This document shows, piece by piece, positions 20,743 to 59,965 of a stretch of DNA of 62,057 nt (position 1 is its first letter; each line of letters opens with the position of its first letter). The position numbers were made by a program, and so were the translations under genes. Source of the DNA: a virus (taxonomy: Duplodnaviria > Caudoviricetes); the IMG/VR virus record IMGVR_UViG_3300032285_002448, positions 1 to 62,057 of that record, one strand, 5' to 3'. The notes below the pieces were generated by a model, which ran no database searches, was not told where the DNA came from, and saw nothing but the letters and a program-made list of their open reading frames with translations.

Positions 20743-21084
20743 ATGGATGAAAGACTGGTAAAAGCATTAGAGCATGCTGAGTATAGGCAAACTCTAGGAA
20801 TCGAAAGACAACGACTAAAAGACAAAGCACATGCAGAACTTGTTATAGGTTATAGCGGTGGCATGTTTACTGTTGATCGTACTTTGATTGGTTTTATAAA
20901 CTCTATCAAAGAATACGGTTCCGCTGTTATATTAGACGACAACGGATATCCTGTACAAATCGACGACCTGGAAGAATTCCAGTCTCGAGTAGTCAGTACA
21001 TATTTTGAAGTTACCAATAGATATCTCACAGACTACAACGAAATCAAACAAAAAAGAACAGCGGCCAAACTGGTAGATCTATGA
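20743..21084 (+). CDS. Hypothetical protein
   Basis: 113-aa ORF with AGGTG SD, translationally coupled to the next gene. Confidence 0.7.
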   Translation: MDERLVKALEHAEYRQTLGIERQRLKDKAHAELVIGYSGGMFTVDRTLIGFINSIKEYGSAVILDDNGYPVQIDDLEEFQSRVVSTYFEVTNRYLTDYNEIKQKRTAAKLVDL

Positions 21085-21887
21085 ATCAAGGATGCTGTAT
21101 CTTTGCCTTTGATGGCGACATTGCATATGGCCCACAAGCAGTTCTAGCGGCCACTCTAGTTAAAAAGTATCTCAACATACCTGTAACTCTTATTACAGAC
21201 AAACTAACTTCAAGCAATACTAACTGCACTATTTTTGATCAAGTTATTATTATTGAGATAGAAGATACAGATAACTCACGTGTGTTATCTGGCAGAAACA
21301 TTTCATTTAAAAACATCAATAGAAATAGAATTTACGATATTACTCCGTACGATAGGACATTACTAATTGATAGCGACTTTCTAGTATTCAGTGACCGATT
21401 AAAACCTTACTTGGATAGTGATAACGATTTCATGATATGTGAAAGCATGAAAGATTTATGCCCAAGAAGACCTGGGGGCGATGTTTGGTTCAGCCCATCA
21501 AGTCTTCATATGCTATGGGCAACAAATATTATATTCAACAAAACACCTGAAAACAAAATACTGTTTGATCTAGTAGAACACGTTAGAGAGAATTGGCAAT
21601 GGTATGGGACACTTTATCAGTTTGATACTAGAAGATTTAGAAACGACTATGCATTTACAGTTGCATGTCATATAATGAGCGGGTTTGGCTGTGAAAAATA
21701 TCATGTGGCGTTACCTAGTCCTATCTTAATCACTGATAGAGACTCTTTAGTAAAAATAACCAACACAAGCATGACATGGGTACTGGGCGAACAAAATACG
21801 CTTGTCAAAACAACCAATCAAGATATTCATATGATGAATAAAATTGAATTGTTAGAAAAAATAGATACCTTTACATTATATGATTGA
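21081..21887 (+). CDS. Glycosyltransferase-like protein (GT-A fold, GT8-like)
   Basis: ITPYDRTLLIDSDFL (DxD), FRNDYAF and DIHMMNK. Paralogous to the next gene. Confidence 0.6.
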   Translation: MNQGCCIFAFDGDIAYGPQAVLAATLVKKYLNIPVTLITDKLTSSNTNCTIFDQVIIIEIEDTDNSRVLSGRNISFKNINRNRIYDITPYDRTLLIDSDFLVFSDRLKPYLDSDNDFMICESMKDLCPRRPGGDVWFSPSSLHMLWATNIIFNKTPENKILFDLVEHVRENWQWYGTLYQFDTRRFRNDYAFTVACHIMSGFGCEKYHVALPSPILITDRDSLVKITNTSMTWVLGEQNTLVKTTNQDIHMMNKIELLEKIDTFTLYD

Positions 21888-22743
21888 AAAGCTATTAGAC
21901 AAAGGCTATTTTATGATAGCTAACAGTACTAAAGAAACAAACTATCTTAAGTTAGCGTATATAACTGCACTGACTATAAAATTAACACAGCCCGAAGGGT
22001 TTAACAATGTAAGCATTGCTACAACAAAGGTAAAGAACGCACAGGCTTTAAAGTTATCTTGGGTATTTGATCAAATTATAGACTACGAAGGCCCTAAAGG
22101 AATGAATGCTAGATCAAGAGCATACGAGCATACTCCTTATAAAGAAACAGTATTCATTGACGGAGATTTCTTATTCCTTAATGATGTTAGCCACTGGTGG
22201 ACTCATATGCAGAAACACGACCTGTGGTGTGCAACTCGCCCTATGACGTTTCGTAATGAAACAATGACCAGCAAGTACTATCGAAAAGTCTTTCTTGACA
22301 ACAACTTGCCAGACTTTTATTCTGGTTGGTTGTACTTTAAACAAAGCAGAGAAACATCTAAGTTCTGGGATATGATGCGAGCCTTAACTGATTATCCAGA
22401 GACATGGAAATCACAATTAATTAACTACAACTTTGAAAGTATTCCTACTGACGAAGCATGTGCGCTGGCCGCAAAGATGTTAGACATGGTTGAGGACATG
22501 AGTGATCCAAATTTACCATTTCCTAGATTCACTCATATGAAATCTAAATCGCAAGGGTTTGGTGATCATGCAACTAACTGGACTGATTACATAGCATTTC
22601 ATTACAACAAAGACTTTAATGTAAAAGTTGGTCCTTATTTCCAGCAAGACATTTTACATTATACACAGAAAGATCTAATTAGTGAAAACTTTATTAATAT
22701 GTTAGAGGACAAGGTATGGAACAAGTACAAAGACATTATGTAA
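21880..22743 (+). CDS. Glycosyltransferase-like protein (GT-A fold, GT8-like)
   Basis: TPYKETVFIDGDFLF (DxD), FYSGWLYF, PTDEA, FTHMK and ILHY. Confidence 0.6.
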   Translation: MIEKLLDKGYFMIANSTKETNYLKLAYITALTIKLTQPEGFNNVSIATTKVKNAQALKLSWVFDQIIDYEGPKGMNARSRAYEHTPYKETVFIDGDFLFLNDVSHWWTHMQKHDLWCATRPMTFRNETMTSKYYRKVFLDNNLPDFYSGWLYFKQSRETSKFWDMMRALTDYPETWKSQLINYNFESIPTDEACALAAKMLDMVEDMSDPNLPFPRFTHMKSKSQGFGDHATNWTDYIAFHYNKDFNVKVGPYFQQDILHYTQKDLISENFINMLEDKVWNKYKDIM

Positions 22744-23276
22744 AATTTAATTCTTCTACATTAGATATCCAGTCCATGGGCGTTCATTACACAGAAGAAC
22801 CAGAGTTTAGCGTATTAGAAGTAGAATGGAAATTAATAGAACCGTTTTTTGTTGATTTAAAAAATATACACGAGTACTATCCTTTAATTGAAAATAATTC
22901 AATTGTAGGTTTTAGACGTAAAAGGATGTTTAATAGTAGCGTTGTTAAGAATGACGATCTCGAAACAGTTAAGTCTATCAGACCTTATGAAAATTTCATA
23001 GCAGACTGTGCTATACTTGCACAACTAACTGGTAAAACTCTAAAGCTGACTTACGATCAATATCATTTTGATAATATTACCAATCAAGAGAATATCGAAA
23101 GATTGACTTTAGTTAAGGAAAAAGTATATAATATACACATTACAGAAAAGGGTAATCCCTACAATCTATACGACACCAAAGAGATTCAAGTAACTAACTT
23201 TATCAGTGGTGTGCCTGTAGAATTGCCCTACGAAGGTCCAAGCCCAATATCAGTTTATGTCGTTGCTAAAAATTAG
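22716..23276 (+). CDS. Hypothetical protein
   Basis: 186-aa ORF overlapping both neighbours within the operon. Confidence 0.65.
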   Translation: MEQVQRHYVKFNSSTLDIQSMGVHYTEEPEFSVLEVEWKLIEPFFVDLKNIHEYYPLIENNSIVGFRRKRMFNSSVVKNDDLETVKSIRPYENFIADCAILAQLTGKTLKLTYDQYHFDNITNQENIERLTLVKEKVYNIHITEKGNPYNLYDTKEIQVTNFISGVPVELPYEGPSPISVYVVAKN

Positions 23277-24132
23277 TGAGCTAGATTGCATATTCATCTC
23301 ATACGATGAACCAAATGCAGAATTAAACTATGCAAGACTATTGCAGGAGGCACCTTGGGCAAAACGTGTACACGGTGTTAAAGGTAGTGATGCGTGTCAT
23401 AAGGCTGCGGCTAATCTAAGCGATACTGATTGGTTTGTTACTGTTGATGCAGATAACATCGTTAATCCTAAATTTTGGGATTTGGAAATTGATTTAGACA
23501 AGTACCCAAACGCACAAGCATTTAACTGGCCAGGGCGTAACAATATTAACGGACTGCGTTATGGTAACGGCAGTCTTAAAGCATGGCGCAAAGAATTTGT
23601 GTTGAACATGCGAACACACGAAGCCGCAGAAGAAGATAAAGGTCAAGTAGACTTTTGTTGGGAGGCAGGATACTATCCTCTCACTGTTAGCTATTCAGAT
23701 ACTATCATAAACACTACTCCTTTGCAAGCATGGAGAGCAGGTTTCCGTGAAGGAGTCAAAATGTGTTTAGATCGTGGCATCCGCCTTGAGCAAGGTAAAC
23801 CTGCAAAAGATGTCATATGGTGGGAAAACCTACATAGATTGAAACAGTGGCTTACATTAGGTATACATGTTGACCAGGGTGCATGGGCAATCGTTGGAGC
23901 ATGGCAAGGTGTTTATCTTACTATGTGTACTGATTGGGACATTACCAATGTTCGAGACTTTGAAATTCTAAATGAAATGTTTGATAAGATATTTGGAACA
24001 GATCCATTAGAACTAATTCAAATGTATCAACTAAAGGCAAAAGATTTTATTAGTGTTCCTGTTCTTAATGCAGATACAAGCGCATACGTAGTGAACACAT
24101 TTGACGAGTTTTACAGGCTTAATCGTGTATGA
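23257..24132 (+). CDS. Glycosyltransferase-like protein (GT-A/GT2-like)
   Basis: FISYDEPNAE, VHGVKG, FVTVDADN (DxD), YGNGSLK and AWRAGFREGVK. Confidence 0.6.
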   Translation: MSLLKISELDCIFISYDEPNAELNYARLLQEAPWAKRVHGVKGSDACHKAAANLSDTDWFVTVDADNIVNPKFWDLEIDLDKYPNAQAFNWPGRNNINGLRYGNGSLKAWRKEFVLNMRTHEAAEEDKGQVDFCWEAGYYPLTVSYSDTIINTTPLQAWRAGFREGVKMCLDRGIRLEQGKPAKDVIWWENLHRLKQWLTLGIHVDQGAWAIVGAWQGVYLTMCTDWDITNVRDFEILNEMFDKIFGTDPLELIQMYQLKAKDFISVPVLNADTSAYVVNTFDEFYRLNRV

Positions 24133-24826
24133 TTTAATTTTTATCAGTTACGGAGAACCAAACGCTGAAGAAAACTATCAGCGTGTTAAATCAAGGTTTC
24201 CTCTTACTAAGCGTGTTAAGGATGTTAAAGGTATACATCAAGCACACATTAAAGCCGCACGTATGAGCTTTACTGAAATGTTTTGGGTCGTCGACGGCGA
24301 TGCACAAATACTAGATTCATTCAGCTTTGATTACAAAGTACCAGAATGGGATTTAGAATGTGTGCATGTGTGGCGCAGTCGCAACCCGCTTAATAACTTA
24401 GAGTACGGCTACGGTGGCGTTAAACTACTACCTAAGAAGCTTACTATCAATATGGATTTAACCAAGCCTGATATGACTACCAGTATTAGCACCAAGTTTA
24501 AAGCAATGCCAGAAGTCAGCAATATTACTGCATTTAATACAGATGCGTTTAGTACATGGCGTTCAGCATTTAGAGAATGTGCTAAGTTGTCTAGCAAAAT
24601 TATTGACGGTCAAGTAGATACTGAAACTGAAGATAGGCTAGATACATGGTGTCATCTTAATACTGATATACCATTTGGCGCACACGGATATGCAGGAGCA
24701 TTAGCCGGAAAGAAATTTGGTCTTGAGCATGTTGCAGAAATAAGTAAAATTAACGATTACAGCTGGCTAAGAGAACAATATGAAAAAACTTTTAAAAATA
24801 CTAATGACTCCGTGGCAGTGGTATAA
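24125..24826 (+). CDS. Glycosyltransferase-like protein, tandem paralog of the preceding gene
   Basis: FISYGEPNAE, VKGIHQAH, FWVVDGDA (DxD), YGYGGVK and WRSAFRECAK. GTG start at 24125 overlaps the upstream stop. Confidence 0.6.
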   Translation: MYDLIFISYGEPNAEENYQRVKSRFPLTKRVKDVKGIHQAHIKAARMSFTEMFWVVDGDAQILDSFSFDYKVPEWDLECVHVWRSRNPLNNLEYGYGGVKLLPKKLTINMDLTKPDMTTSISTKFKAMPEVSNITAFNTDAFSTWRSAFRECAKLSSKIIDGQVDTETEDRLDTWCHLNTDIPFGAHGYAGALAGKKFGLEHVAEISKINDYSWLREQYEKTFKNTNDSVAVV

Positions 24827-24881
24827 GTCACAAAAGCGTCTTAAAGCGTTAGCAAAACAAGATCCATTTATATACAAATGA
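24780..24881 (+). CDS. 33-aa basic peptide coupled to the carbamoyltransferase (not in ORF track)
   Basis: MKKLLKILMTPWQWYKSQKRLKALAKQDPFIYK*. Its TGA overlaps the carbamoyltransferase ATG (ATGA at 24878-24881). Confidence 0.65.
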   Translation: MKKLLKILMTPWQWYKSQKRLKALAKQDPFIYK

Positions 24882-26368
24882 TTACTTGGGGGATATCAGC
24901 TAACAGTCATAATGCGGCCGTTGCCGTGTTTGCTGACGAACATCTGATATTTGCTTCAGAGACAGAACGCTGGAGCGGAATTAAAAACGATCCTAATCTT
25001 AATAAAGATCTAATCTACTATCTAAACTCTCGCAACCTTACTCCTGATCGTGTAGTTTGGTACGAAAAGCCTTTGCTGAAAACATTTAGACAACTTGAAG
25101 CAGGCCAAGGCTGGCGCTATCGAGAAAACAATATCAAAAAATATTTAAAAGAGTATCTACCAAGTACACCTATAAAGTATATAAGCCATCACAAAAGCCA
25201 TGCGGCTGGTGGGTACTGTACCAGCGGGTTTGATCAAGCCTGCATACTTGTAATAGATGCTATTGGAGAATACGAAACACTTACCATATGGAGTGGGGAA
25301 GGTAGTAAGTTAACTAAACTATACAGCTTAGAGTATCCAAACAGCATAGGACTTTGGTATAGCGCAATGACACAGCGATGTGGGTTGGCGCCAAACGAAG
25401 AAGAGTATATCCTAATGGGCATGGCCGCATACGGCGACCCTAAGAAATACTTTAATAGAATATTATCAGACTTCTTTAGTTTCCCCGATGATGAATGGAA
25501 TCATATTTTTCGTTTGAAAGAAAACCTACATCGTGGATGCAGGTCATGGGCACTGGAACTTAGCACAGAGCAAGATTTATTTGACATCGCAGCCGCAACA
25601 CAAGCAGTGTACGAAACAGTATTTGAACGTGTTCTACAGTACGCTACAAAATTATCATCAAGCCGTAATTTAGTATTCATGGGCGGATGTGCGTTAAACT
25701 GTGTAGCAAACAAACTAACTGGCAAGTATTTTGATAATACATGGATAATGCCAGCGCCGGGCGATAGTGGTAGTGCTATTGGTGCGGTATATGCATCAAA
25801 GCCGCATTGGCGAATGCAACCGTATGAATTCACTCCATTGCTTGGATACGAGATGCGTGGAAATGCAAACAACTACGAAATTGTATCTTATCTAGAAAAG
25901 AATCAGATATGCGGCGTTGCTAGAGGTCAAGCAGAATTTGGGCCACGTGCATTAGGTAACAGAAGCCTGCTTGCAGATCCACGTGGTAATGATATAAAGG
26001 AAAAAGTAAATGCAATTAAACAACGACAACAATTTAGACCATTCGCTCCCGCAATTTTGGAGGAGTTATGTGACACTTACTTTGATATGCCTAGCGGTTG
26101 GAATAACAGTAGGTATATGCAAGTCGTCGCTCGTTGTAGGGTTCCTTACTTATTTCCTGCTATCGTTCATGCTGACGGGACTTCTCGTGTTCAAACTGTC
26201 CCAAAAGATGGAAGCAAGTTTAGAGAACTCTTAGAACTATGGTATGCTCGGACAGGATGTCCTATGTTGCTGAATACCAGCTTGAACATTAAAGGCAAGC
26301 CAATGGTAAACAGTAGGGATGATGCGTTAGATTTTCAAAACACTTACAATATTAAAGTGTTTACGTAG
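24878..26368 (+). CDS. O-carbamoyltransferase (NodU/CmcH/TobZ family)
   Basis: HNAAVA...ERWSGIKND, HHKSHAA, DAIGE, MGMAAYG, GGCALNCVAN, PAPGDSGSAIG, EFGPRALGNRSLLADP, RPFAP and LLNTSLN. Confidence 0.95.
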   Translation: MITWGISANSHNAAVAVFADEHLIFASETERWSGIKNDPNLNKDLIYYLNSRNLTPDRVVWYEKPLLKTFRQLEAGQGWRYRENNIKKYLKEYLPSTPIKYISHHKSHAAGGYCTSGFDQACILVIDAIGEYETLTIWSGEGSKLTKLYSLEYPNSIGLWYSAMTQRCGLAPNEEEYILMGMAAYGDPKKYFNRILSDFFSFPDDEWNHIFRLKENLHRGCRSWALELSTEQDLFDIAAATQAVYETVFERVLQYATKLSSSRNLVFMGGCALNCVANKLTGKYFDNTWIMPAPGDSGSAIGAVYASKPHWRMQPYEFTPLLGYEMRGNANNYEIVSYLEKNQICGVARGQAEFGPRALGNRSLLADPRGNDIKEKVNAIKQRQQFRPFAPAILEELCDTYFDMPSGWNNSRYMQVVARCRVPYLFPAIVHADGTSRVQTVPKDGSKFRELLELWYARTGCPMLLNTSLNIKGKPMVNSRDDALDFQNTYNIKVFT

Positions 26369-27846: not shown

Positions 27847-28497
27847 TTATGTTTGGGTGTCTTCATCATTAACTGCGTACATTTTTGTGTAAATTTCTTC
27901 AAGTGCATTGTCAGGCCAAGAAGAATTTTTGTAAACATGTTCTTCTAGATATTTAAAATCAAACCTGCCTTGCTCTGTTTTAGCTCGTATAATTTGAGAT
28001 TCTTCTGGACTAAACGCTGGCATCATTATCTCCATACCAACTGGCTGTTCCCCGTATGTAAAACAATTAAAAAATCCAAATGTTTTGAGATTTTTATCTT
28101 CATCTATAAAGAAATATTCTGGATCCATAGTGACTTTGTATACTTTTTCTTGTCTAAAATCCATGCACATCTGTGTCAGCTGATCTTTCCAATCAGGGCA
28201 ATACTGATCTAATGTTTCGCCTCTATCAAGGATGTCTTTACAGAAGTGTCCTCCAAATCTTAGATAGACTCTCCATCCATCTCTGTTTTCTTGTCCAAAC
28301 TGTGGGCACCATTTGTATTTAGATAACGGTCCTGTTACATGATTAAGGTCCCGCACAAAGCATGATCTTACAAATAGTAAAGAGCATGTTGGGCGTTCTA
28401 CGTATGCTGTGCAAATGTAACTGTTATCTTTGGCCTTATAAAGATGAAAAATTCCTTCTTTGATAAATTCCCAATTTTCGCTCATCGGTTCTCTCAT
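27847..28497 (-). CDS. Degenerate protein-kinase-like fold protein (paralog 1)
   Basis: PDWKDQL...YKVTMDPEYFFID...LKTFGFF aligns with 35457..36146 and 40582..41259. Start MREPMSEN gives an ATGA overlap. Confidence 0.5.
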   Translation of the reverse strand: MREPMSENWEFIKEGIFHLYKAKDNSYICTAYVERPTCSLLFVRSCFVRDLNHVTGPLSKYKWCPQFGQENRDGWRVYLRFGGHFCKDILDRGETLDQYCPDWKDQLTQMCMDFRQEKVYKVTMDPEYFFIDEDKNLKTFGFFNCFTYGEQPVGMEIMMPAFSPEESQIIRAKTEQGRFDFKYLEEHVYKNSSWPDNALEEIYTKMYAVNDEDTQT

Positions 28498-31004: not shown

Positions 31005-31017
31005 GAAATATTTATAT
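30997..31017. repeat. 21-bp exact repeat, copy 1 (late promoter plus start codon unit)
   Basis: gtcagcatgaaatatttatat is identical at 41914-41934. The minus strand reads ATATAAATATTTC-ATG-CTG-AC. Confidence 0.8.
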
Positions 31018-31022
31018 AAGTA
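31009..31022. promoter_or_regulatory. Overlapping divergent T4-late-like promoters
   Basis: TATAAATA on minus (31016-31009, ATG 4 nt later) and TATAAGTA on plus (31015-31022, ATG 7 nt later). Confidence 0.65.
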
Positions 31023-31029
31023 CTTTACT

Positions 31030-51445: not shown

Positions 51446-52339
51446 TTATTTTCTTTCGTTGATGCTGTCATACAATAACTTTGCTATCACTGCATGCCCT
51501 TTTCTTGTAGGATGACAACAGTTGGTTATGTACTCTGAAGGTTTATCTAAATTGATATAGTGCTTCCACCAACCTCCAAAAATAAGATCTGGGTTATTTT
51601 CTAATTTCAAAAGCTCTTGTAGGAACGTTTCAGATCCATTAGGGTATATATAGTTAGACCAATCTACTCTATCGATTAAATTTTTGTTGTCTTTTTCTAG
51701 GGCAGGAATTAAACCGCATAAGGTCCTCATTAGCCAAGTTCTATTGGCTCGTAAATCAAATGCGCTTGCAAGGAAAAATTTATATCCGTGCGCTTTGCAG
51801 TACGTTTGAACTTCTAATATAGATAACAAAAGTTCTACAGCAATAAATCGTTCTGAGTAAATGTGGGTAGCATAGGCTTTCCATAGCTCGTAATTAGTAG
51901 CAGTTGGATCATTATAGTTAGGCCACATGGCTTCAAAGCTATAGTGTCCTGACTTATCTTTAGCACCCCAGTCTTTGTTAACAAAATCAAACCTTTCTAA
52001 TCCAGTCATCAAGAATACAACAATCACTTCGTTAGATTCATCTATTGTTAGTCTATTGTTAAGATACAGTTGTTTAACACAACCTCTATTGCCTATTCCT
52101 GCGTGTCCCATATTAACGGGAACATAATCTGTTAGATAATTATCACACAGTTGTTTTACCCAACTGCCTTCATATTGCTCGGCTATTAGTTTTTTATCGA
52201 ATGTAAACCCATCAATCTTGTTGTTATATTTTTTCCAAATAGCGTCTGTATATGCTCCTACACCTTGTGTGAAACTATCGCCTAATCCAATAAGAACTTT
52301 GTCGCCTTTTTTAATTTTAGGAACGTGTTCATGAAACAT
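51446..52339 (-). CDS. SGNH/GDSL hydrolase-like protein
   Basis: GLGDSFTQGVG, NMGHAGIGN and CCHPTRKGH. Confidence 0.7.
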   Translation of the reverse strand: MFHEHVPKIKKGDKVLIGLGDSFTQGVGAYTDAIWKKYNNKIDGFTFDKKLIAEQYEGSWVKQLCDNYLTDYVPVNMGHAGIGNRGCVKQLYLNNRLTIDESNEVIVVFLMTGLERFDFVNKDWGAKDKSGHYSFEAMWPNYNDPTATNYELWKAYATHIYSERFIAVELLLSILEVQTYCKAHGYKFFLASAFDLRANRTWLMRTLCGLIPALEKDNKNLIDRVDWSNYIYPNGSETFLQELLKLENNPDLIFGGWWKHYINLDKPSEYITNCCHPTRKGHAVIAKLLYDSINERK

Positions 52340-53597
52340 TAAAATAATCCTTACAGTAATTTAACAACTCAACAGATCCTAAAGTCCTAATATCTTTTCT
52401 AGAATGAAAATGATTATAGTTGTGTTCTAGTATTTCACGCATACCCATAAACCACTCTAATTTATTTTCTATTGAATCTATTCTTTTTAATTCGTTTATG
52501 ATAGCTGTCATTCTATCATGTGATGACATGCTATCGTATCTTTCATCAATAAACCCCTCAAATGTGCGGTATCCCATATCTCGTAGTGCTTGTAGGCTGT
52601 GTCGTCCTCCTAATATAATAAAAGGATGCATACAAGCAATAGATTTAAAAGTTTTTTCGCTAATAAACACAGCACGGTCTTCGTCATTAAAGATAGGCTC
52701 ACTTACAACGCTTACCCAGCTGTCTTTATACACTTGTTCGTATATTCTGTCTATATAATATCCGTCGCCAAATTGTGTATTTGATTGTCCGTATATTTCT
52801 AAAGGCAGTATAGATCTTGCTTGTTGTAACAAGTCGTTATCTGGCATTCTTCCGTCAATCATACCAACGTGCATATCTCCCCAATCATTTGTACTAATCA
52901 GTCCCTTATCTATTAAGTTAGATTTATACATCTGACCAAGAAACCATATCCTATGAGTTCTTAATCTTTTCTGTAGGCAACTAAACGTTTTAATCTCGTT
53001 GTTCTTTTTATATTCAATATTAGTATTCCAATCTTGGAACAACTGAGTATCTCGTGCTATTTGCATCACTGCAAACTCAAAGTGCGCATAGCCAATAGTT
53101 TTTAATTTGTCAGTGATGCCATTTTGATTAGCCCAACTATCGTAGTCTGCGCCTGTATTCCAATTGCCTGTTACATACACTACAGATTTAGGAGGAATAC
53201 TGTACTTGATAAACTGTTCATGAAACCATTCCCACAACCAAGAAATATGATATCCTTCCAGTCCTTGATCTAATAATAGTAATGCACGACCTTCTTGTAA
53301 ATCTTTTAGATAGATAGGACTAATCCAATCAAACAGGTTAGATCGACCTCTGCCTCGTGTCCAATCAACTGGATGGTGCCTTACTCCTACAGGTATTACA
53401 TAATTGTCTGGTCTATTTTTTACACTAAAGATATTGGTAGGACATATTACATAATTTTTAGAATCATAATGTCTAGTTGTTTCAGCCAGTACACTAGGAT
53501 GAAAGCGACTAAGACCAGATGGATTGTTCTCTTTGCATTCAATAAAGTTTAACTTATCATCTAATGTATGGCTTTGCTCATATACCCAATTAATCAT
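52329..53597 (-). CDS. Glycosyltransferase-like protein (GT-B type C-terminus)
   Basis: FSCLQKRLRTHR...SVVSE...FISEKTFKSIACMHPFII.G...GYRTF...IDERYD...HNY. Paralog of 57898..59082. Start moved to MINWVY. Confidence 0.55.
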   Translation of the reverse strand: MINWVYEQSHTLDDKLNFIECKENNPSGLSRFHPSVLAETTRHYDSKNYVICPTNIFSVKNRPDNYVIPVGVRHHPVDWTRGRGRSNLFDWISPIYLKDLQEGRALLLLDQGLEGYHISWLWEWFHEQFIKYSIPPKSVVYVTGNWNTGADYDSWANQNGITDKLKTIGYAHFEFAVMQIARDTQLFQDWNTNIEYKKNNEIKTFSCLQKRLRTHRIWFLGQMYKSNLIDKGLISTNDWGDMHVGMIDGRMPDNDLLQQARSILPLEIYGQSNTQFGDGYYIDRIYEQVYKDSWVSVVSEPIFNDEDRAVFISEKTFKSIACMHPFIILGGRHSLQALRDMGYRTFEGFIDERYDSMSSHDRMTAIINELKRIDSIENKLEWFMGMREILEHNYNHFHSRKDIRTLGSVELLNYCKDYFNVS

Positions 53598-54936
53598 GTA
53601 GCGATCGGCAATCTTCGAAGAATTTAATGAGCTCTGGGAAAGTATTATAGAATGACGTACGGCGTCTTTTATCATATTCCGTAAACCAACTATAAAAATC
53701 TTTACGACCCTCAATAAGTCTATCTTGATCATAATTTGTGTTCCTCATATATTCAACAACACGACTAAACTTTTCACACTCTAGCGCAGAGAATTTATTT
53801 TTGTGCATATACTCTAAAGAGGTCTCCATGTAAGGCATAAAATCTTCCTTAGGTAGCAAATTCATATCGTATTGCAATGGTTCTTTTAGATAGGGTGTAT
53901 CAAATCTTATACGTTGTTTTGTACTAAACCAGCCGTTATATTTTCTACGCCATTGTTTTATCTTAACTAATAATGAACTAAAATTTGTAACTGTTAAGAT
54001 GTTAAATGTACACATGAAAGTTATAGGCTGTTTAGTTTTAGTTAGATACGTGTGCAAGTTCTTTTCCCAAACTGCAATATCTAATCCTGTGCGTATATAC
54101 TCTGCAGGTTCTCCCCACGTGTCAATGCTGGTAAACAATTTAAAGTGTTTGATCTTGTTTTCTTTTAACAGTCTGTTGACTTTTTCCACAAGCCTTTCAA
54201 TAAGGATTGGTTTGACTCCAAGATTGCTATTAAGATTAAGCTCGAGATTAGGTTTAGGATTATCGTACAGATCATCTAACAGTTTCCATGTTGATTGTTG
54301 CAATAACGGTTCTCCGCCTGTAATGCGTAAGATGTTTAGAGTCTTACTAACTTCAGGCCACCACTTCCACCATGCTTCAACATATGGATTAGTTTCTTCT
54401 TCGTATAGATGCAGATAGTCGATATCATTACGATGATTCTTAACCATTGTATAAGGACCAAAGTCTTTGATCTCTTTGTAGTATGCAGAGCTGTGCTTTG
54501 GATGGCAATATCCGCATTTAAAATTACATTCATTACCAAAACTGATCTCAATGTATTCTGGATTGACAGGAGCTAGAGGATTGGTCTTTATAGCTCCTAG
54601 ACGTTCTTCGTTATATATGCTGGCATTGCGTTCGTGACGATCGCTAATATGCTCGCCTGGCAATGCTTCAATGTTCCAGCAGTATTGGCAACCGCCAGGC
54701 TTTTGTCCATCTAGCATCTGTTGACGCTCTGCTGTCTTTTGTGGAGTATTGTGTAATACGCTAGGATCTTCCTTTAACAAGTCCAAAGGAATAGCATGCG
54801 GCCGTGGATGATAGCAACTGTGTGTTTGACCACTCTGTAGATATATTGTAGTATGATGCCACTTAGCCAAACAGAACGTAGGACTTATTTCATTGACTAT
54901 CGGTATTACTTTTTGAATACGACTAATTTCGCTCAA
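53590..54936 (-). CDS. Radical SAM protein with N-terminal twitch-like domain
   Basis: FCLAKW...SCYHP...CQYCW, then CNFKCGYC, ITGGEPL, NSNL and FTSID. Probable TTG start at 54936. Confidence 0.9.
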   Translation of the reverse strand: MSEISRIQKVIPIVNEISPTFCLAKWHHTTIYLQSGQTHSCYHPRPHAIPLDLLKEDPSVLHNTPQKTAERQQMLDGQKPGGCQYCWNIEALPGEHISDRHERNASIYNEERLGAIKTNPLAPVNPEYIEISFGNECNFKCGYCHPKHSSAYYKEIKDFGPYTMVKNHRNDIDYLHLYEEETNPYVEAWWKWWPEVSKTLNILRITGGEPLLQQSTWKLLDDLYDNPKPNLELNLNSNLGVKPILIERLVEKVNRLLKENKIKHFKLFTSIDTWGEPAEYIRTGLDIAVWEKNLHTYLTKTKQPITFMCTFNILTVTNFSSLLVKIKQWRRKYNGWFSTKQRIRFDTPYLKEPLQYDMNLLPKEDFMPYMETSLEYMHKNKFSALECEKFSRVVEYMRNTNYDQDRLIEGRKDFYSWFTEYDKRRRTSFYNTFPELIKFFEDCRSLHD

Positions 54937-55672
54937 TGTCTGCCTCACTACAGTTAGTTCCAAACTGTATTTCTACAATGCGGCATGACACATCAAAGGG
55001 GTTGTGTAACTGATGCCATTGGTTGACTGATATCTCAATACCGTCATGTTTGTTTAACGTTAGATTATGCATGTCTAGTCTTTTAACTTCGCATGCGCCT
55101 TCTGTAACTAACCAAAACTCTGTTCTATGCTGATGTCTTTGCATTGATAAAGATTGCTTTGGTTCAATTGTTAATTCCTTTACCTTAGTGCCCGGTACTT
55201 CGTGTAGCACTCGATAATATCCCCAAGGGCGTTCTGTCTTAGGTGCCTTCCACTCATCAAGTATCCAACTAGAACTATTAACTTTGTTATCCCCGCCTAC
55301 TCCAAAGACAAACTCTAAATTCAAATACTTTTTTAGTAGATCCATTTCTGGGATATTGTCTTTGGTTCTATCACCACCGTTAGCAAATACAATATCGTGA
55401 TTAGGAAATATTTCTCTAGCTTTACGAATAGCATCTTTAGCAGAGTTGTCATCGTCATTAAAACTAATAACACGATCAACTACATGCATAGCACTGATGA
55501 TAGTTGCACGTTCTTCCCAAGGCATAAATGCACGGCCTTTTTTACGCTCTAGCCAACTATCACTATTAAGGCCAACAACCAGTTTATCTCCTAGCTCTCG
55601 AGCAGAGTTAAAGTATGCAATGTGTCCGGAATGGAGAGGGTCAAAACCCCCAGTAACTAAAACTATTTTCAT
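54923..55672 (-). CDS. Cytidylyltransferase-like (RfaE/TagD-type) domain fused to a mannose-6-P isomerase-type cupin
   Basis: TGGFDPLHSGH, GLNSD, KKGR and FANGGDR, then ERPWGYY...LSMQRH.HR.EFW...WHQL.N...IVEIQ.G...EADIER. Confidence 0.85.
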   Translation of the reverse strand: MKIVLVTGGFDPLHSGHIAYFNSARELGDKLVVGLNSDSWLERKKGRAFMPWEERATIISAMHVVDRVISFNDDDNSAKDAIRKAREIFPNHDIVFANGGDRTKDNIPEMDLLKKYLNLEFVFGVGGDNKVNSSSWILDEWKAPKTERPWGYYRVLHEVPGTKVKELTIEPKQSLSMQRHQHRTEFWLVTEGACEVKRLDMHNLTLNKHDGIEISVNQWHQLHNPFDVSCRIVEIQFGTNCSEADIERN

Positions 55673-55831: not shown

Positions 55832-56083
55832 TTATTTGCCGCTGTAGTCCTTGACTACGCCGCCGTGACGTTCGCTTTGTCCTTTACTTCCGGATTTACC
55901 ACGTAGGCTTTTACCGGAACCTTTCTCGCCTTGTTTTCCAGTACCATCTGTGTGGTCTGAATCATGTGCAAGATACCCTAAGCTAACGCATTGATTGTAA
56001 CGGACACGACTTTTGGTGTTTCCGCTCTTGCATTGGCTACGGGTTGGATTGGCGATTTCTGATATGAATTCAATTGCTCTCAT
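55832..56083 (-). CDS. Small basic protein with MRAIEFISE N-terminus (possible internal head protein)
   Basis: ATG at 56083 is 5 nt after TAAATA. The protein is K/G/S-rich, and its N-terminus resembles T4 capsid-targeting sequences. Confidence 0.6.
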   Translation of the reverse strand: MRAIEFISEIANPTRSQCKSGNTKSRVRYNQCVSLGYLAHDSDHTDGTGKQGEKGSGKSLRGKSGSKGQSERHGGVVKDYSGK

Positions 56084-56084
56084 A

Positions 56085-56783
56085 TCAGTATTTAGCGTGT
56101 TCACGTTCCTTATAGAAAACGTGGCCGCCTACCCTTGTTACTCTCTCTTTACTGTGTGCCCAGGGTGGTCTAATACCTGTTGCATGGAAATACAATGCAT
56201 CAGAATATTTTGATCTGAGGTCCTCATAATTCTCAGAGTCACTAAGTAGACGAAGAGCTACATGTTGGCTTTGAACCCAACGCTCATCATTACTCTTAGG
56301 GTTTTTGACAAACATACAACGCCAGCTAAACTGACAGATGCTGATCTTGGACCATACTGTTTGTTCGGTAGTTTCAACTTCCTTTTTGCCGTACCAATTG
56401 GTTTTGGTAGTTTTTAGGATTTGATTTTTAGGAATGTCCTTAGTCAGTTTCTGGTCAACGACACCACAAATGGTATCTTTGAATCTGCCATCTTGTGTAC
56501 GATTGATCGTAACAATACCTACGGCTACTTTACCTTCTTCGGGTTCACTGCCTGCTTCAAAGAATATGTTCCTTGCTAGACAGTTGAGTTCCTTCATGTT
56601 GATTACAGGGTTAGTCATTGCTTTCGCAACTGCCTGTATCTTGTCGCTTGTCATATCATAGATGTCTCTAGTGAATGACGAGTTACTTGCTACTTGATAA
56701 GACTGTAAGTCTTCTGCATGACCGGGTGCCATTACGGTCAGGGCGTATACTGCTACTAACACTAAAAAACGTGTTATTGACAT
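56085..56783 (-). CDS. Cell wall hydrolase (SleB / Hydrolase_2 family) with N-terminal signal or anchor
   Basis: CLARNIFFEAGSEPEEGKVAVG.VT.NR, TICGVV.Q, CQFSW, ALYFHA...P.W and GGHVFY. AGGAGG SD. Confidence 0.9.
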   Translation of the reverse strand: MSITRFLVLVAVYALTVMAPGHAEDLQSYQVASNSSFTRDIYDMTSDKIQAVAKAMTNPVINMKELNCLARNIFFEAGSEPEEGKVAVGIVTINRTQDGRFKDTICGVVDQKLTKDIPKNQILKTTKTNWYGKKEVETTEQTVWSKISICQFSWRCMFVKNPKSNDERWVQSQHVALRLLSDSENYEDLRSKYSDALYFHATGIRPPWAHSKERVTRVGGHVFYKEREHAKY

Positions 56784-56854
56784 AATCGTGTCCTCCTATT
56801 TTGTATACTTTACTGTATATGTGTGTGTAAATCCTTAACGGGTAAGTTTAGTTA

Positions 56855-56906
56855 CTCAAATTTGTCAGATCGGCCCAATAATAGGGCCAAAATGACTCTT
56901 TTTGAG
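56855..56906. other. Imperfect stem-loop in the intergenic region upstream of the cell wall hydrolase
   Basis: Nested inverted repeats CTCAAA/TTTGAG, GTCA/TGAC and GGCCC/GGGCC around a 7-nt loop. Confidence 0.5.
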
Positions 56907-56922
56907 CTATAAAGTAGGTACT

Positions 56923-57132
56923 TTATTCTGTACCAGCAACTACGTCAGTTAAAGGAGTATTAGTTCCTCTATACTCACGCTTTTCTTTCTTTGGAGCAAT
57001 AGCGGCATACAATTCCGCTTGAATCATTGCTCGCTTCCACTGACCCTTTAAATGTGGGTCTTGCATCTTGCTCAAAGCCAATGATGTTTTGAGTGGTTTG
57101 CTCATCTTATAGTTTGCTGTTGGTTTTAACAT
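56923..57132 (-). CDS. Small basic hypothetical protein
   Basis: MLKPTANYKMSKPLK..., with an AGGAG SD and its own sigma70 promoter. Confidence 0.7.
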   Translation of the reverse strand: MLKPTANYKMSKPLKTSLALSKMQDPHLKGQWKRAMIQAELYAAIAPKKEKREYRGTNTPLTDVVAGTE

Positions 57133-57151
57133 TTTATCTCCTGATATGAAT

Positions 57152-57180
57152 AGTATATTATCTTTCGTTGCGATTGTCAA
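57152..57180 (-). promoter_or_regulatory. Sigma70 (early) promoter
   Basis: Minus strand TTGACA(57180-57175)-N17-TATACT(57157-57152). Confidence 0.75.
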
Positions 57181-57901
57181 ACGGCATTTTGGTTTGTTCA
57201 TCCCACCAATATAAACTGCGGTGTGGATTACTTATAGGTGTAGAGTTACTGCTGTAATAAAACAGTCGCAAGTTTTCTCGTTGCTGATCTGTAGGGCATG
57301 CTAACGGAGTAGGGTATCCGTGTATAAGTCGTTCGTCATAGTCCCATATGATTAGTCTATTAGGTATAGGGTACGTTTTTACCAAACACTCTGTGCGTTC
57401 AAAGTCCCAAAACTCTAGTGCGCCATTCCATTGTTCATCCCATTTGGGATTCAAATATAGGATAGCACTACAACTGCGATTTAGATGTAGTTGTTCGTTC
57501 CAATTAAAGTCTGTGTGCAGATTAAGAAAGTGTCCATTACTGCATGTTGATAAACCTGCTCCTACTAATTTAGGATCGCTTATGATACGATCTTTTCCAG
57601 TTAGTGCTTCCAGCCAATTAAGGAACACTCCGCTATTAAAACAATGTGTCAGTGTTTGTATTGTAGGAGCAGATGAGAATATCTTACACTCACGCATAAG
57701 ACTGCCCTTGCGTGTAAAGTTAGTCCATTGATAATCCGGTATCTGTGCAATTTCACTTTGAGCTTGTGTTAGAATATCTTTAGGCAAAAAGTCATCTATT
57801 ACCAAATAAGGCACAGGCTCTTTTTGAATGTAGTCTAAGTGATACTCTTTTGGATTATACTTTAGATACAGATTGTTAAAGTAATCATACAAAGATTTCA
57901 T
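57158..57901 (-). CDS. 2OG-Fe(II) oxygenase (prolyl hydroxylase-like)
   Basis: VIDDFLP, GAGL, LHTDFN, ILYLNPKW...GALEFW, PNRLII, HGYP and R..LRLFYY. Confidence 0.88.
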   Translation of the reverse strand: MKSLYDYFNNLYLKYNPKEYHLDYIQKEPVPYLVIDDFLPKDILTQAQSEIAQIPDYQWTNFTRKGSLMRECKIFSSAPTIQTLTHCFNSGVFLNWLEALTGKDRIISDPKLVGAGLSTCSNGHFLNLHTDFNWNEQLHLNRSCSAILYLNPKWDEQWNGALEFWDFERTECLVKTYPIPNRLIIWDYDERLIHGYPTPLACPTDQQRENLRLFYYSSNSTPISNPHRSLYWWDEQTKMPFDNRNER

Positions 57902-59082
57902 CGCTGTGTCTCTAGTTCAAATGCATCTGATAGCCACGTAAACTTAGGAAAGTTATTGTTAGTCCATTCTGCATTAGTTTGCAGGGTTTTTAGCATTGAC
58001 AAGTTGTATTCAGCAATCTCTTTACAGTCAGCAATTAAACTGTCATAAGCATCTTTGTCCAATGCGGCAATACGTGTTATCTCAGCGATCACTGCCCTAT
58101 GTCTTGTTTCGTTATCTACGATAGTGTCGTAACTTTCATCTATTAATCCCTCAAATGTTTTAAAGCCCATTCTTCTAATACATGCAAGGGTATAAGGAAC
58201 ACCATATGAAATAAACGGCCTATTACAAGCTATGGCCTTAAATGTTTTTTCAGTTAAGAATATAGGTTGAAACTTGGAATCATATGCTCGGCTACGAACA
58301 TATTCGTTTGGGTTGAACTGACTTTCTATTATAATGTTAATGTCTGCTTGTTGTATAGCCCTGTAGGTTGCCATATGGAATTTTAAATCCACTCGTGCAT
58401 CTAGATCGTAAGGTATTCCATTAATCCAAGAGTTTAATGGTTCCTGTGCAGTATCTATACCGTAGTTGAATAGATCCATACGCAATTCTGATAAAGGAAA
58501 TTTCTTAATAATGCCGTATGGAAATATATTGTGAAATGTAAACACAAAGTCTTTGATCAAATTATCATTTACTAAATTGGCAAAGAATCTAAGACGCCAG
58601 GGCCTGTAATTACGGCTAAGGCAACTGAACTTGTGTGTAGTTGCGGTATCTTCTTTAGGTATGTTAGTAGCTATCACGCTGTAGTAAGTAGAAGCAATGT
58701 TAACACCGGTTATACCTAGCTCAGCCAATCCATTACGCAAAAATTCTGCGTGTTCGTCATCTACTACAATTACAAACACTCTGTCTAAATCTAGATCTAG
58801 TGATACAATGCATGATGCTAGACTGTTGACAAATCTTTTGTCAAATGTTTCGTTACAATTCTCATAAACAAAACGGGTAGTTTTATCCAATTTAAAATGA
58901 TGCCAGTGTTCTTCTTCAAGACACCTAGCCATTGATACTTGCCCATTTAGCAAATCGTATAGTTGATAGTAGTAAACAGTATTGGGCTCAAACTTACACT
59001 CTCTTAAGGGTCTAATGTGTCTTAGGTTAAATTTGGAGTGCGGTATCTTGCCCGTTTTAGAATATATTTTGAGTTGGCTCAT
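57898..59082 (-). CDS. Glycosyltransferase-like protein (paralog of 52329..53597)
   Basis: FSCLSRNYRPWR...NIIIES...FLTEKTFKAIACNRPFI...GFKTF...IDESYD...EYN. Confidence 0.55.
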   Translation of the reverse strand: MSQLKIYSKTGKIPHSKFNLRHIRPLRECKFEPNTVYYYQLYDLLNGQVSMARCLEEEHWHHFKLDKTTRFVYENCNETFDKRFVNSLASCIVSLDLDLDRVFVIVVDDEHAEFLRNGLAELGITGVNIASTYYSVIATNIPKEDTATTHKFSCLSRNYRPWRLRFFANLVNDNLIKDFVFTFHNIFPYGIIKKFPLSELRMDLFNYGIDTAQEPLNSWINGIPYDLDARVDLKFHMATYRAIQQADINIIIESQFNPNEYVRSRAYDSKFQPIFLTEKTFKAIACNRPFISYGVPYTLACIRRMGFKTFEGLIDESYDTIVDNETRHRAVIAEITRIAALDKDAYDSLIADCKEIAEYNLSMLKTLQTNAEWTNNNFPKFTWLSDAFELETQR

Positions 59083-59089
59083 ACTTGAC

Positions 59090-59138
59090 TATTTAAAGTT
59101 CAGAATGTACAATGTGTAGTAATAGTGATACTTAAATA
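59090..59138. promoter_or_regulatory. Divergent late-like promoter pair
   Basis: TAAATA on minus (59095-59090, ATG 7 nt later) and TAAATA on plus (59133-59138, ATG 5 nt later). Confidence 0.6.
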
Positions 59139-59143
59139 AAATC

Positions 59144-59965
59144 ATGCAAACACAAATCGATCACACAACAAACCCAAATTTCAACCCAGATTCCCTTCCA
59201 CAGGAACAGACATTTAAGATTTCTGGAACACCCTTAGAAGTTATTCAAGCCCTAGCTTATGTTAGAGCACTAGGTGGTGGTCACGTATACATTGCTAAGG
59301 GTCTACTTGCGGCCAAGCATCGGTACTACTTAGGACACCCAGGGCCTGTAGATCTTACAGGACGTCTTAATGATGAAGACATTGAGATCATCCAAAGCCT
59401 AGCCCAAAACTGTTCTTACATTAGTGGTATTACAGAATGGGCTGGCCAGATCGTCGATTGGGATTTGGACAAGATTGATTATACTGTTGACATGGACAAT
59501 CGTTTCAATCGTCACCCTATGGATCGTTTTGGTAAAGTATGTAATGTCCATTGGACACAATGGAACATGATCAAGATGGCCAGCTGGTTAGATATTCCTG
59601 CTAACGTAGGACGTCCAACAGGCAAGGGTATTGTTGTTACTGGCTCAGGCTGGGAAGATCGTGAAGTATACAAAGCATGGGCTCAACAGGGCCTAGGCAA
59701 CATGAGCACTTTCTTGGGCTCAGAAGCAGATTACAAAGAGTGGGTGGCCGCAACGGGTATCAAAATGACTCGCGTAGGTTACAAGCACGTAGCGGAATTA
59801 GCACAGTGGATTAGTGGTGCTCAACAAGTCATCTGCACTCCAGGTTGGGGTGCGGCCATAGCGCAAGCTATCAACCAACGCTATCTAGTGCAGAGCCTGC
59901 CGGGCATTGAACTATGGCGTAACCCATGGGTAATCGGCGAACGTGGAAACAACGGACCATTCTAA
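59144..59965 (+). CDS. GT9 (heptosyltransferase)-like protein, tentative
   Basis: FLGSEADY...HVAELAQWISGAQQVIC....AAIAQAIN resembles a degenerate GT9 C-terminal motif. Confidence 0.4.
   Translation: MQTQIDHTTNPNFNPDSLPQEQTFKISGTPLEVIQALAYVRALGGGHVYIAKGLLAAKHRYYLGHPGPVDLTGRLNDEDIEIIQSLAQNCSYISGITEWAGQIVDWDLDKIDYTVDMDNRFNRHPMDRFGKVCNVHWTQWNMIKMASWLDIPANVGRPTGKGIVVTGSGWEDREVYKAWAQQGLGNMSTFLGSEADYKEWVAATGIKMTRVGYKHVAELAQWISGAQQVICTPGWGAAIAQAINQRYLVQSLPGIELWRNPWVIGERGNNGPF

Follow-up and report, generated by a model that had tools for sequence, protein, structure and literature searches.

A radical SAM-rich gene island in a jumbo myovirus fragment: a candidate pathway for tailoring an unusual sugar or glycan

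The uncultured virus record IMGVR_UViG_3300032285_002448 was analysed over its entire length of 62,057 bases, hereafter called the window. To the right of a left third made up of phage genes lies an island of approximately 39 kb (21-59 kb) holding about 45 enzyme genes, which the original prediction, made from the bare sequence, had taken for a tailoring-enzyme system decorating the virion or the cell surface. The enzyme inventory drawn up at that time was mostly right. In particular, the nine radical S-adenosylmethionine (SAM) genes are all there: the CX3CX2C motif is present in 9/9, and seven of the nine pass the PF04055 cut-off (29.5 bits). The remaining two reach 28.0 and 25.4 bits; one of these passes NF033640 (311.7 bits versus 170) and the other matches a radical SAM PHROG at 3e-21.

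These nine genes fall into distinct groups. Three encode enzymes with an N-terminal twitch domain (N-twitch), 42591-43940 (+), 46575-47873 (-) and 53590-54963 (-), which score 332.8, 425.0 and 311.7 bits with NF033640 against a curated cut-off of 170 bits, the three matches spanning profile positions 1-397. PF13186 was found at residues 6-101, before PF04055, in 42591-43940 and 46575-47873, and was not detected by Pfam in the third. We know of no substrate assigned to NF033640. Two further genes, 29272-30426 (-) and 36172-37215 (+), carry a Zn-ribbon (PF23545) together with PF04055, and their products are 37% identical to each other. Three small radical SAM genes, 44726-45640 (+), 45571-46578 (-) and 50480-51436 (-), show a weak likeness to STM4011 and viperin, and a single further gene lies at 47866-48939 (-).

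A scan of IMG/VR with 46575-47873 yielded 280 confirmed viral stretches, from which 80 loci were kept; a second scan with 36172-37215 added four, giving 84 loci in which an N-twitch gene is present by construction. Each locus extends at most ±10 kb, with many measuring just 4-7 kb. The methyltransferase-like gene 49896-50489, the radical SAM gene 47866-48939 and the small radical SAM family of 50480-51436 each occur in 78-80 of the 84, usually within a few kilobases of the N-twitch gene and in a recognizable order. The conserved core consists of the three N-twitch enzymes, the three small radical SAM enzymes, the one further radical SAM enzyme and the methyltransferase-like protein. Five large related contigs contain 8-10 radical SAM matches apiece, clustered in about 20 kb, and in a more distant lineage a copy of the glycosyltransferase (GT) gene of the GT-A type at 24101-24826, 60-66% identical, directly adjoins the core. 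The block of AspH-like, cupin, kinase-like and Zn-ribbon radical SAM genes recurs in about 9-20 of the 84 loci, and the sulfotransferase, the APS-kinase fusion, the carbamoyltransferase and the first GT pair in none of them, within the limits of ±10 kb and of many short loci. Such variation of the decorating genes between relatives is expected of an exposed, diversifying surface structure.

The cassette is found in hundreds of viral contigs and also in Bdellovibrionota chromosomes. A pattern scan of cellular genomes, which takes one genome per species and is biased, returned at least 71 loci; among the matches listed, 47 of 71 belong by record title to Bdellovibrionales, Bacteriovoracaceae or Oligoflexia. 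Cellular N-twitch proteins are up to 50% identical to those of the window, and some genomes carry several copies. In Bdellovibrionota this upper value for the N-twitch enzymes is accompanied by identities of 44-46% for the small radical SAM enzyme 50480-51436, about 34% for 47866-48939, 36-40% for the methyltransferase-like protein and up to 58% for the GT-A protein, and carbamoyltransferases are present as well. Several small contigs of metagenome-assembled genomes (L093, L095, L106 and L159) share many phage genes and may be misbinned phage. Clearly chromosomal loci lie on a 558-kb contig (with DnaG, TadA and MscL), on a 3.0-Mb contig and on a 1.9-Mb chromosome (with RecG and TsaE). Unlike the phage island, the Bdellovibrionota loci are set among housekeeping genes (DnaG, TadA, MscL, RecG, SUF) and accompanied by GT2, GT-C and membrane proteins.

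Twenty-five of the cellular loci, eight plus seventeen non-redundant ones, were annotated, and sugar or glycan genes lie within the flanks of 12. A Poseidonocella isolate has an NDP-hexose (nucleoside diphosphate hexose) 2,3-dehydratase and FdtA next to the homologue; a Polaromonas locus (L149) has Wzt, Wzm, WbsX and a TylF methyltransferase; a Micromonospora locus has an epimerase and a GT1; and a Paenibacillus locus has a GT2 with a fatty acid synthase (FAS)-like set and an AMP-ligase, of glycolipid type. Several Bdellovibrionota loci contain GT2, GT1/GT4, CTP_transf_3 and carbamoyltransferases, and further surface-glycan neighbours are ABC-2 (L145), LPG_synthase_TM (L104) and PMT_2 (G008). 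The methyltransferase-like family was detected in 4/5 Bdellovibrionota genomes and in G008 adjoins GNAT, GT2 and PMT_2 genes. Ten of the 25 loci have neither a glycan gene nor an M16 peptidase, and none has a recognition element (RRE) for ribosomally synthesized and post-translationally modified peptides (RiPPs).

Tandem arrays of four to seven N-twitch or other radical SAM paralogues were observed in Bdellovibrionota (L113, 2166-11287; L108, 8665-17015; L135), the first of them broken by an IS1595-type transposase. In G007 (L167, 6275-9577) the methyltransferase-like domain is part of a 1100-amino acid (aa) open reading frame (ORF) immediately upstream of an Rrf2-SufB-SufD-SufS operon, and fused forms of 413 and 561 aa occur in other genomes; the Pfam matches of the 1100-aa ORF to glutaredoxin, nitrate reductase and other families, each with 0 significant stretches, look like artefacts of a biased composition and were set aside.

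The window's island opens with a GT block, 21081..24826 (+), composed of a weak GT8-like pair (21081-21887 and 21880-22743, both +; 21081-21887 matches GT8 only at E=0.027), an unknown gene (22716-23276, +) and a GT-A pair with a DxD motif (23257-24132 and 24101-24826, both +), paralogous at 4e-26. The AlphaFold2 (AF2) model of 24101-24826 has a pLDDT of 85.4, and the DxD residues D65 and D67 are invariant. Foldseek related this model with a probability of 0.99 to SunS, WrtF, RmlT and PBCV-1 A64R, and its comparison with B4GALNT1 gave a VIA Z of 11.4 and a root-mean-square deviation of 3.0 over 138 residues; its best fold matches, at low TM-scores, include the peptide or protein GTs SunS, ThuS and ppGalNAc-T and the chlorovirus capsid GT A64R. 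Far downstream, 52329-53597 (-) is a GT10-like lead from the atlas, and 57898-59082 (-) is its paralogue (2.7e-19 to 52329-53732). The atlas scores of 52329-53732 and 57898-59082 to GT10 clusters, 0.78-0.79, are to be read as a lead only; PF00852 (GT10) was absent from the Pfam scans of both, and profile A6 found no PDB sequence match. Out of about seven GT-like genes originally counted, the GT-A fold of 24101-24826 and its paralogue 23257-24132 therefore stand, and the rest are GT8 or GT10 leads only.

An O-carbamoyltransferase of the NodU/CmcH type at 24878-26368 (+) has both Pfam domains (PF16861, 164.5 bits; PF02543, 141.7 bits) and scores 131 bits where the NodU equivalog cut-off is 1000, so that it is a member of the family, as had been proposed, and not a NodU orthologue. 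The sulfotransferase at 39508-40101 (+) matches PF03567 (Sulfotransfer_2) with 34 bits versus a cut-off of 22, in agreement with its earlier assignment. The fusion of an APS (adenosine 5'-phosphosulfate)-kinase-like domain with a nucleotidyltransferase at 48939-49742 (-) was likewise recovered by Pfam and NCBIfam scans, as APS-kinase-like: PF01583 scores 45.1 bits versus 21.1 over only positions 5-94 of the 152-position profile, and none of the NCBIfam cut-offs for APS kinase is reached. Its C-terminal domain of about 110 aa, with an (H/T)xGH motif, matches nicotinamide mononucleotide (NMN) adenylyltransferases at about 1e-5 and not a sulfurylase model, and phrog_10255 ('kinase') is matched over the full length of the protein at 8.5e-50. 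It is possibly a minimal enzyme resembling PAPS (3'-phosphoadenosine 5'-phosphosulfate) synthase. Directly upstream, and overlapping it, is an overlooked gene for a DUF2061 membrane protein of 58 aa (49727-49903, -; 70.5 bits), the island's only membrane-type protein. The predicted nucleotidyltransferase-cupin at 54923-55672 (-) has both of its Pfam domains, a cytidylyl/adenylyl-transferase-like one (PF01467, 49.5 bits) and a ManC-type cupin (PF01050, 82.7 bits), and matches RfaE domain II at 3.7e-22.

About 10 oxygenases had been counted, and this number holds with nine inside the interval and a tenth, 9783-10391, outside it, four of them being AspH-like only at 50%. AspH-like oxygenases are encoded at 28494-29270 (-), 30423-31004 (-) and 32853-33506 (+), with PF05118 scores of 29.4, 32.4 and 59.0 bits (cut-off 22.6), and the iron-binding triad H122, D124 and H169 is invariant in their alignment (A8). 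A further AspH-like gene, 41256-41921 (-), reaches 93% with hhalign and only E=0.16 with Pfam, and a 2-oxoglutarate (2OG)-Fe(II) oxygenase lies at 57158-57901 (-; PF13640, 50.7 bits). Four small cupins, paralogues of about 165 aa (38012-38506, 38503-39003 and 38991-39506, all +; 40098-40589, -), have an invariant HxD...H (H100, D102, H152), and the AF2 model (pLDDT 92.7) is a cupin barrel, a fold for which small non-oxygenase cupins score as high as AspH. Their hhalign match to the AspH family (50%, E=1.6e-4) has the triad aligned. The small cupin family was found in 0/5 Bdellovibrionota genomes, a search without a positive control and hence not informative. In the Ralstonia phage RsoM2USA (L091, 197-214 kb of the record) about 20 consecutive hypothetical genes of about 200 aa (RsoM2USA_315-336), a few kilobases from the N-twitch homologue, recall these tandem paralogues.

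A fibre-like block, 14585..20733 (+), directly precedes the first GT genes and shares their strand. It begins with two paralogues of about 300 aa (14585-15499 and 15512-16372, both +), followed by a 1450-aa protein (16381-20733, +) with subtilase, BD-FAE esterase and He_PIG Ig domains in Pfam; phrog_9158 is matched in the block at 1.8e-84. The C-terminal 300 aa or so of the 1450-aa protein are paralogous to the two preceding ORFs, and its make-up resembles that of a fibre or spike bearing depolymerase-type domains. Two phrog_9158 subtilases are present in the left third; their cyanomyovirus relatives (29-35% identity) are neighbours of baseplate genes or have been labelled virion structural proteins. 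The plus-strand run 14247-26368 is contiguous, with overlapping stop and start codons, and the reported continuity of the first GT block with virion genes is thereby confirmed.

The iron-sulfur (Fe-S) carriers, the halogenase-like gene and the epimerase said to lie near the island were all recognized by Pfam, outside the interval. Two IscA-type carriers, 12625-12933 (-) and 14247-14573 (+), match PF01521 with 55.6 and 53.2 bits and flank a Trp-halogenase-like gene, 12930-14186 (-; PF04820, 103.7 bits). A Trp halogenase adjoins the island in the related contig G001 too, but on the far side, the window copy being upstream of the fibre-like block. The epimerase/dehydratase gene is separated from two large probable tail or fibre proteins of 1296 and 579 aa (2246..7896, -), which have repeats in common, by an HNH endonuclease gene on the opposite strand (8192-8758, +), probably a mobile homing-type insertion. 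The ORF 6157-7896 matches a PHROG 'minor tail protein' at 5.8e-22, and an ATP-dependent ligase gene is also among the phage genes of the left third.

With a CheckV completeness of about 17%, the window is a fragment of a jumbo myovirus that has not been cultured and whose genome measures roughly 350 kb. The phage genes of the left third, the large related contigs, their capsid relatives and the phage RsoM2USA indicate that the window is not cellular DNA. A cellular origin was rejected, and the viral nature assumed at the outset borne out, on the basis of tail-protein PHROGs, the HNH endonuclease, the ligase, a lysin, the cyanophage-type virion subtilase and the status of the sequence as a virus record. 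Relatives retrieved through island genes include contigs of 126-268 kb that are 35-75% complete. G001-G003, which carry the core cassette but are more distant from the window, have a gp23-family capsid gene; its product shares 67-71% identity with the capsid proteins of the jumbo phages Phosso (469 kb), Vibrio 2.275.O (349 kb) and PA5oct (287 kb). G005 is the sole contig collinear with the window, and a gp23 match was not found in it; the capsid gene therefore shows that the core occurs in phages and does not prove that the window itself is phage, as no capsid gene is available from its own lineage. Among isolates, RsoM2USA (344 kb) alone has copies of island genes, and these are distant, with 46% identity for the carbamoyltransferase and 23.5% for the N-twitch enzyme, the latter being the best match of that enzyme, and not a close one, among 50,697 phage records. 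Megablast of positions 1-21000 against these records gave no match at the nucleotide level, and no tRNA gene was found in the window. No RNA sequencing run turned up that contains its sequence, whereas one DNA run contains 97% of the sampled words and may come from the source sample. The G+C content is 0.33-0.40 in the island (21-56 kb), 0.39-0.42 in the left flank and up to 0.45 at the right end; the lower value of the island is consistent with separate ancestry or relaxed composition.

The remaining island genes are less clearly assigned. Three paralogues, 27847-28641, 35457-36173 and 40582-41259 (all -), had been called kinase-like; the paralogy and a weak match of their profile A1 to Ser/Thr kinases in the PDB (E=1.3e-4) stand, whereas the HRD and DFG aspartates are not conserved. 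No tblastn match to this family was obtained among the at least 71 cellular loci listed. Other labels kept partial support: the SDR (short-chain dehydrogenase/reductase)-like gene 31030-31560 (+) is a weak match (E=2.9e-4), as is the SGNH-like gene 51446-52339 (-; E=0.0076); the QueC/TilS-like PP-loop ATPase 41981-42703 (+) is below the Pfam cut-off and has the SGGxDS motif; and the methyltransferase assignment of 49896-50489 (-) is an atlas lead, with viral clusters only. The GNAT label of the weakly GNAT/FeeM-like gene 34921-35469 (-) is unsupported (E=0.013-0.088), and the nitroreductase-like label found no match in Pfam, PHROG or NCBIfam scans. A 266-aa protein of unknown function (37212-38012, +) is conserved, with homologues 62-81% identical in four related loci. 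The other unknowns are 31548-31889 and 31873-32802 (both -), a 474-aa protein at 33503-34927 (-), 43933-44733 (+) and 59144-59965 (+). Profiles A3, A4, A5, A6 and A11 (A3 and A11 from the block 33503-38012) gave nothing usable against the PDB; profile A5 matched designed repeat proteins, hits that were set aside as spurious. At E up to 5, the Pfam matches of 29 unknown ORFs were mostly at chance level, and Choline_kin_N, IRF and Nucleo_P87 were not used.

A non-island insert, 55832..57201 (-), comprises a 90-aa protein, a SleB-like cell-wall hydrolase with a signal peptide (PF07486, 61.1 bits; N-terminal hydrophobic segment) and a 92-aa ORF, and is conserved in L008 and L015. The 90-aa protein (55832-56104, -) has a Lys/Gly/Ser-rich tail and is 86-91% conserved in these two loci. 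The insert is possibly a lysis-type module interrupting the island, and the 90-aa protein might alternatively be an acceptor.

Many cassettes had been credited with late-type promoters, a claim that failed. The T4-type late promoter TATAAATA is depleted, with 2 sites versus 9.52 ± 3.05 expected, and all 100 shuffles reach at least 2; relaxed 7-mers upstream of about five genes were judged to be no evidence for late promoters. An identical 19-base stretch occurs at 30999-31017 and 41916-41934 (the plus strand reads ...CAGCATGAAATATTTATAT) before two minus-strand AspH-like genes, and both TATAAATA sites sit 4 nucleotides before the probable true ATG of these genes. The repeat could be a duplicated promoter or a leaderless start. 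Because this stretch is shared, the listed starts 31100 and 42008 and the TTG start of 30973-31560 are read as read-through artefacts; these three start codons are probably wrong and the true starts 31004, 41921 and 31030.

Judged by its gene content, the island probably encodes a cytoplasmic pathway that starts from nucleotide-activated precursors and makes and tailors an unusual sugar or glycan, whatever the acceptor. Of the readings considered, sugar or glycan chemistry has the strongest backing from the gene neighbourhoods of the homologues in cells, and the window itself has the logic of nucleotide-sugar metabolism: an epimerase/dehydratase, the RfaE-II/ManC-related nucleotidyltransferase-cupin and a second fusion of a kinase with a nucleotidyltransferase. 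The gene families, the conserved core and its spread, the glycan-type context in cells and the adjacency to fibre genes are observations; from them we infer to which class the substrate belongs, in which order the steps run and what the acceptor is. The radical SAM set would carry out the hard C-H steps on the sugar skeleton (epimerization, oxidation, deoxygenation or C-C/C-methyl chemistry), with Fe-S clusters supplied by the phage IscA-type carriers. A variable shell of enzymes would then decorate the product, namely the cupin and AspH-like hydroxylases, the carbamoyltransferase and the sulfotransferase fed by the phage APS-kinase fusion; methyl groups may be added as well, and the SGNH-like esterase is a weaker decorating candidate. 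Finally, the GT-A and GT10-like transferases would attach the product to its acceptor.

The reading we favour, with a probability of about 0.35, is that this acceptor is the phage's own tail fibres or other virion proteins. Apart from the fibre-like block in the window, genes for a 1699-aa virion protein and three tail-fibre proteins come before the island of G001 and on its strand, an arrangement repeated in G003; tail-fibre PHROGs occupy 134-146 kb of these two contigs, and the island follows at 150-171 kb. No membrane-spanning segment was predicted in the island enzymes, the DUF2061 protein being the only membrane-type product, and Pfam found no exporter, flippase (Wzx), polymerase (Wzy), ABC exporter or polyprenyl-phosphate GT in the 68 ORFs scanned. 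This lack of membrane and export proteins agrees with a soluble acceptor, for example a virion protein. Together, the adjacency to fibre genes, the absent export genes and the GT-A fold matches favour, but do not prove, a soluble acceptor made by the phage.

Several observations weigh against this assignment. The adjacency to fibre genes amounts to two lineages only, since G001, G002 and G003 are one lineage, and in T4-like phages it is common for hypervariable regions to be close to fibre genes for reasons of another kind. Nor is the late-promoter consensus enriched. The matches of the radical SAM enzymes to characterized families are all far below the cut-offs of those families, and the nearest solved relatives of the N-twitch enzymes are mixed: SkfB (peptide, 6.5e-8), GDGT-MAS (lipid), viperin, MoaA and BlsE (sugar-nucleoside). 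The GT-A fold is common to nucleotidyltransferases, with IspD and MobA at Z of about 10, and the GT10 and GT8 assignments are leads only. Accessory genes scored as absent may lie outside the viral loci, because these are short. Lastly, 13 of the 25 annotated cellular loci have no glycan gene nearby, and three have an M16 peptidase by the radical SAM genes.

The same sugar chemistry could instead place its product in the host envelope, in lipopolysaccharide (LPS) O-antigen, capsule or S-layer glycan, where it would block superinfection or alter adsorption. We regard this as a tentative possibility. Such remodelling of the cell surface has been proposed for the LPS gene clusters of cyanomyoviruses and for phages that convert the O-antigen. 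Cellular cassettes do occur in surface-glycan loci with exporters (L149, L145, L104 and G008), and host flippases could serve the phage. In the part of the S-SCSM2R account dealing with these genes, large cyanomyoviruses, which are the nearest isolates by the subtilase, carry carbamoyltransferases and sugar genes (PMC12801897). Against remodelling of the envelope stand the lack of any exporter, flippase, polymerase or lipid-carrier GT in the window, the conserved adjacency to fibre genes and the consideration that a slow, multi-step change to a doomed cell would presumably gain a lytic jumbo phage little.

A peptide or protein substrate, of the RiPP kind or modified directly, seems unlikely to us. 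In such a pathway the radical SAM enzymes would cross-link or epimerize, the AspH-like enzymes hydroxylate Asp or Asn, the kinase-like proteins bind or phosphorylate, and the GT-A enzyme glycosylate as SunS does. The nearest solved N-twitch relative, SkfB, is indeed a peptide thioether enzyme, the weak NCBIfam matches are mostly RiPP maturases, the best-known AspH and protein-kinase folds are protein-directed, and the top GT-A matches in Foldseek are the S-glycosyltransferases SunS and ThuS. The M16 peptidases by the radical SAM genes in three of the 25 cellular loci would also suit this reading. The architecture with an auxiliary-cluster radical SAM enzyme is shared with SPASM/twitch RiPP maturases (SkfB, sactipeptide, ranthipeptide); unlike in those, the twitch domain is N-terminal here (NF033640). 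No precursor-like small ORF was found in the 11 gaps of more than 40 bp, where the DUF2061 gene was the only real small gene, and no RRE/PqqD, YcaO, LanB/C or leader peptidase among the 68 ORFs; a larger protein could still be the substrate. The kinase-like proteins lack the catalytic aspartates. Beside the cellular homologues, glycan genes outnumber M16 peptidases by 12 to 3 in 25 loci, and arrays of five paralogous radical SAM genes (L113 and L108) are unusual for RiPP clusters.

It is similarly improbable that the product is a free small molecule, such as a nucleoside, an aminoglycoside-like compound, a glycolipid or a modified nucleotide for anti-defence or signalling. Radical SAM enzymes with carbamoyl-, sulfo- and methyltransferases, an SDR, a PP-loop ATPase and a halogenase-like enzyme form a typical tailoring set for natural products, and the Paenibacillus N-twitch gene belongs to a FAS-like, AMP-ligase and GT2 cluster. 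However, the window scans revealed no terpene or aminocyclitol synthase and no exporter, and, as had been stated before, no non-ribosomal peptide synthetase (NRPS) or polyketide synthase (PKS) is found by Pfam in the 68 ORFs. About six GT-like genes point to the assembly of a polymer or conjugate rather than of a single metabolite. The small radical SAM enzymes have weak viperin- and QueE-like matches, but these scores are all far below the family cut-offs. The authors of the S-SCSM2R study, in the portion that treats similar genes, interpret them as 'antibiotic synthesis' (PMC12801897).

Hypermodification of DNA (or of tRNA or rRNA), as in glucosylated hydroxymethylcytosine, 7-deazaguanine or hypermodified thymidine, is very improbable: a QueC/TilS-like PP-loop ATPase with a C-terminal Cys motif, weak QueE-like matches, P-loop kinase and GT genes, and a genome of which 17% is in the window, so that core genes could lie elsewhere, speak for it, but the cellular cassette sits with glycan genes and not with DNA-modification genes, and the reported lack of a core gene was upheld, PF00303 (ThyA) and PF01702 (TGT/DpdA) being found neither in the window nor in any of five related contigs (one of them 75% complete, all records incomplete, controls detected).

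Glycosylation of the virion by virus-encoded enzymes has precedents. Freeman in 2023 reportedly described glycosylation of capsid and tail in mycobacteriophages. Chlorovirus PBCV-1 A64R and Mimivirus R699 are soluble virus-encoded GT-A proteins that act in the cytoplasm independently of the host's export machinery, as the product of 24101-24826 would; Foldseek relates them to our model with a probability of 0.99-1.00 at low TM-scores (0.26-0.36), and the virion acceptor in the present case is a candidate suggested by gene adjacency. To our knowledge, none of these systems, whether of mycobacteriophages, chloroviruses or Mimivirus, includes radical SAM enzymes.

Large cyanomyoviruses such as P-SSM2 and S-SCSM1 have auxiliary clusters of LPS and glycan genes. 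The subtilase and the carbamoyltransferase of the window have cyanophage relatives at 28-35% identity. Unlike the window, cyanomyovirus clusters hold at most one or a few radical SAM genes, and the major capsid protein of G001-G003 is of the PA5oct/Phosso/Vibrio 2.275.O jumbo type and not of the cyanomyovirus type. The sections on S-SCSM2R clusters describe hypervariable blocks with sugar-nucleotide enzymes, carbamoyltransferases, 2OG oxygenases and sulfotransferase-type genes, as in the window (PMC12801897).

The genome of another aquatic phage, the T4-like marine TARA_ERS488813_N000010, likewise combines an IscA-type carrier with many radical SAM genes: 12 of these are reported alongside its A-type Fe-S carrier (Nishimura et al. 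2017, PMC5332604). In the passages concerned, Nishimura et al. suggest that the carrier serves viral Fe-S proteins and propose no function for the radical SAM genes; these passages give a radical SAM count only, and, unlike the present analysis, no cassette structure and no link to glycans or Bdellovibrionota (PMC5332604). We found no description of the cassette or of its Bdellovibrionota link in the literature on phages, Bdellovibrio, jumbo phages or T4-like phages. Glycan genes in phages and marine phages rich in radical SAM genes were already known; a conserved cassette of seven to nine radical SAM enzymes tied to glycosyltransferases had not been described.

In its most specific form, our proposal is that an uncharacterized radical SAM pathway (the core with the GT-A enzyme), common to aquatic jumbo phages and predatory Bdellovibrionota, builds a sulfated, carbamoylated and hydroxylated glycan on the phage's own tail fibres without host export machinery, which taken as a whole is rather unlikely. 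The question is directly testable, since the core is small enough to be expressed and homologues are present in harmless Bdellovibrionota isolates. If correct, it would reveal new radical sugar chemistry in the NF033640 family and account for these phages carrying their own Fe-S carriers. It would also provide a concrete candidate for bacteriophage virions that glycosylate themselves, a counterpart in bacteriophages of the autonomous glycosylation of giant viruses, with the lineage-specific decorations as a variable coat.

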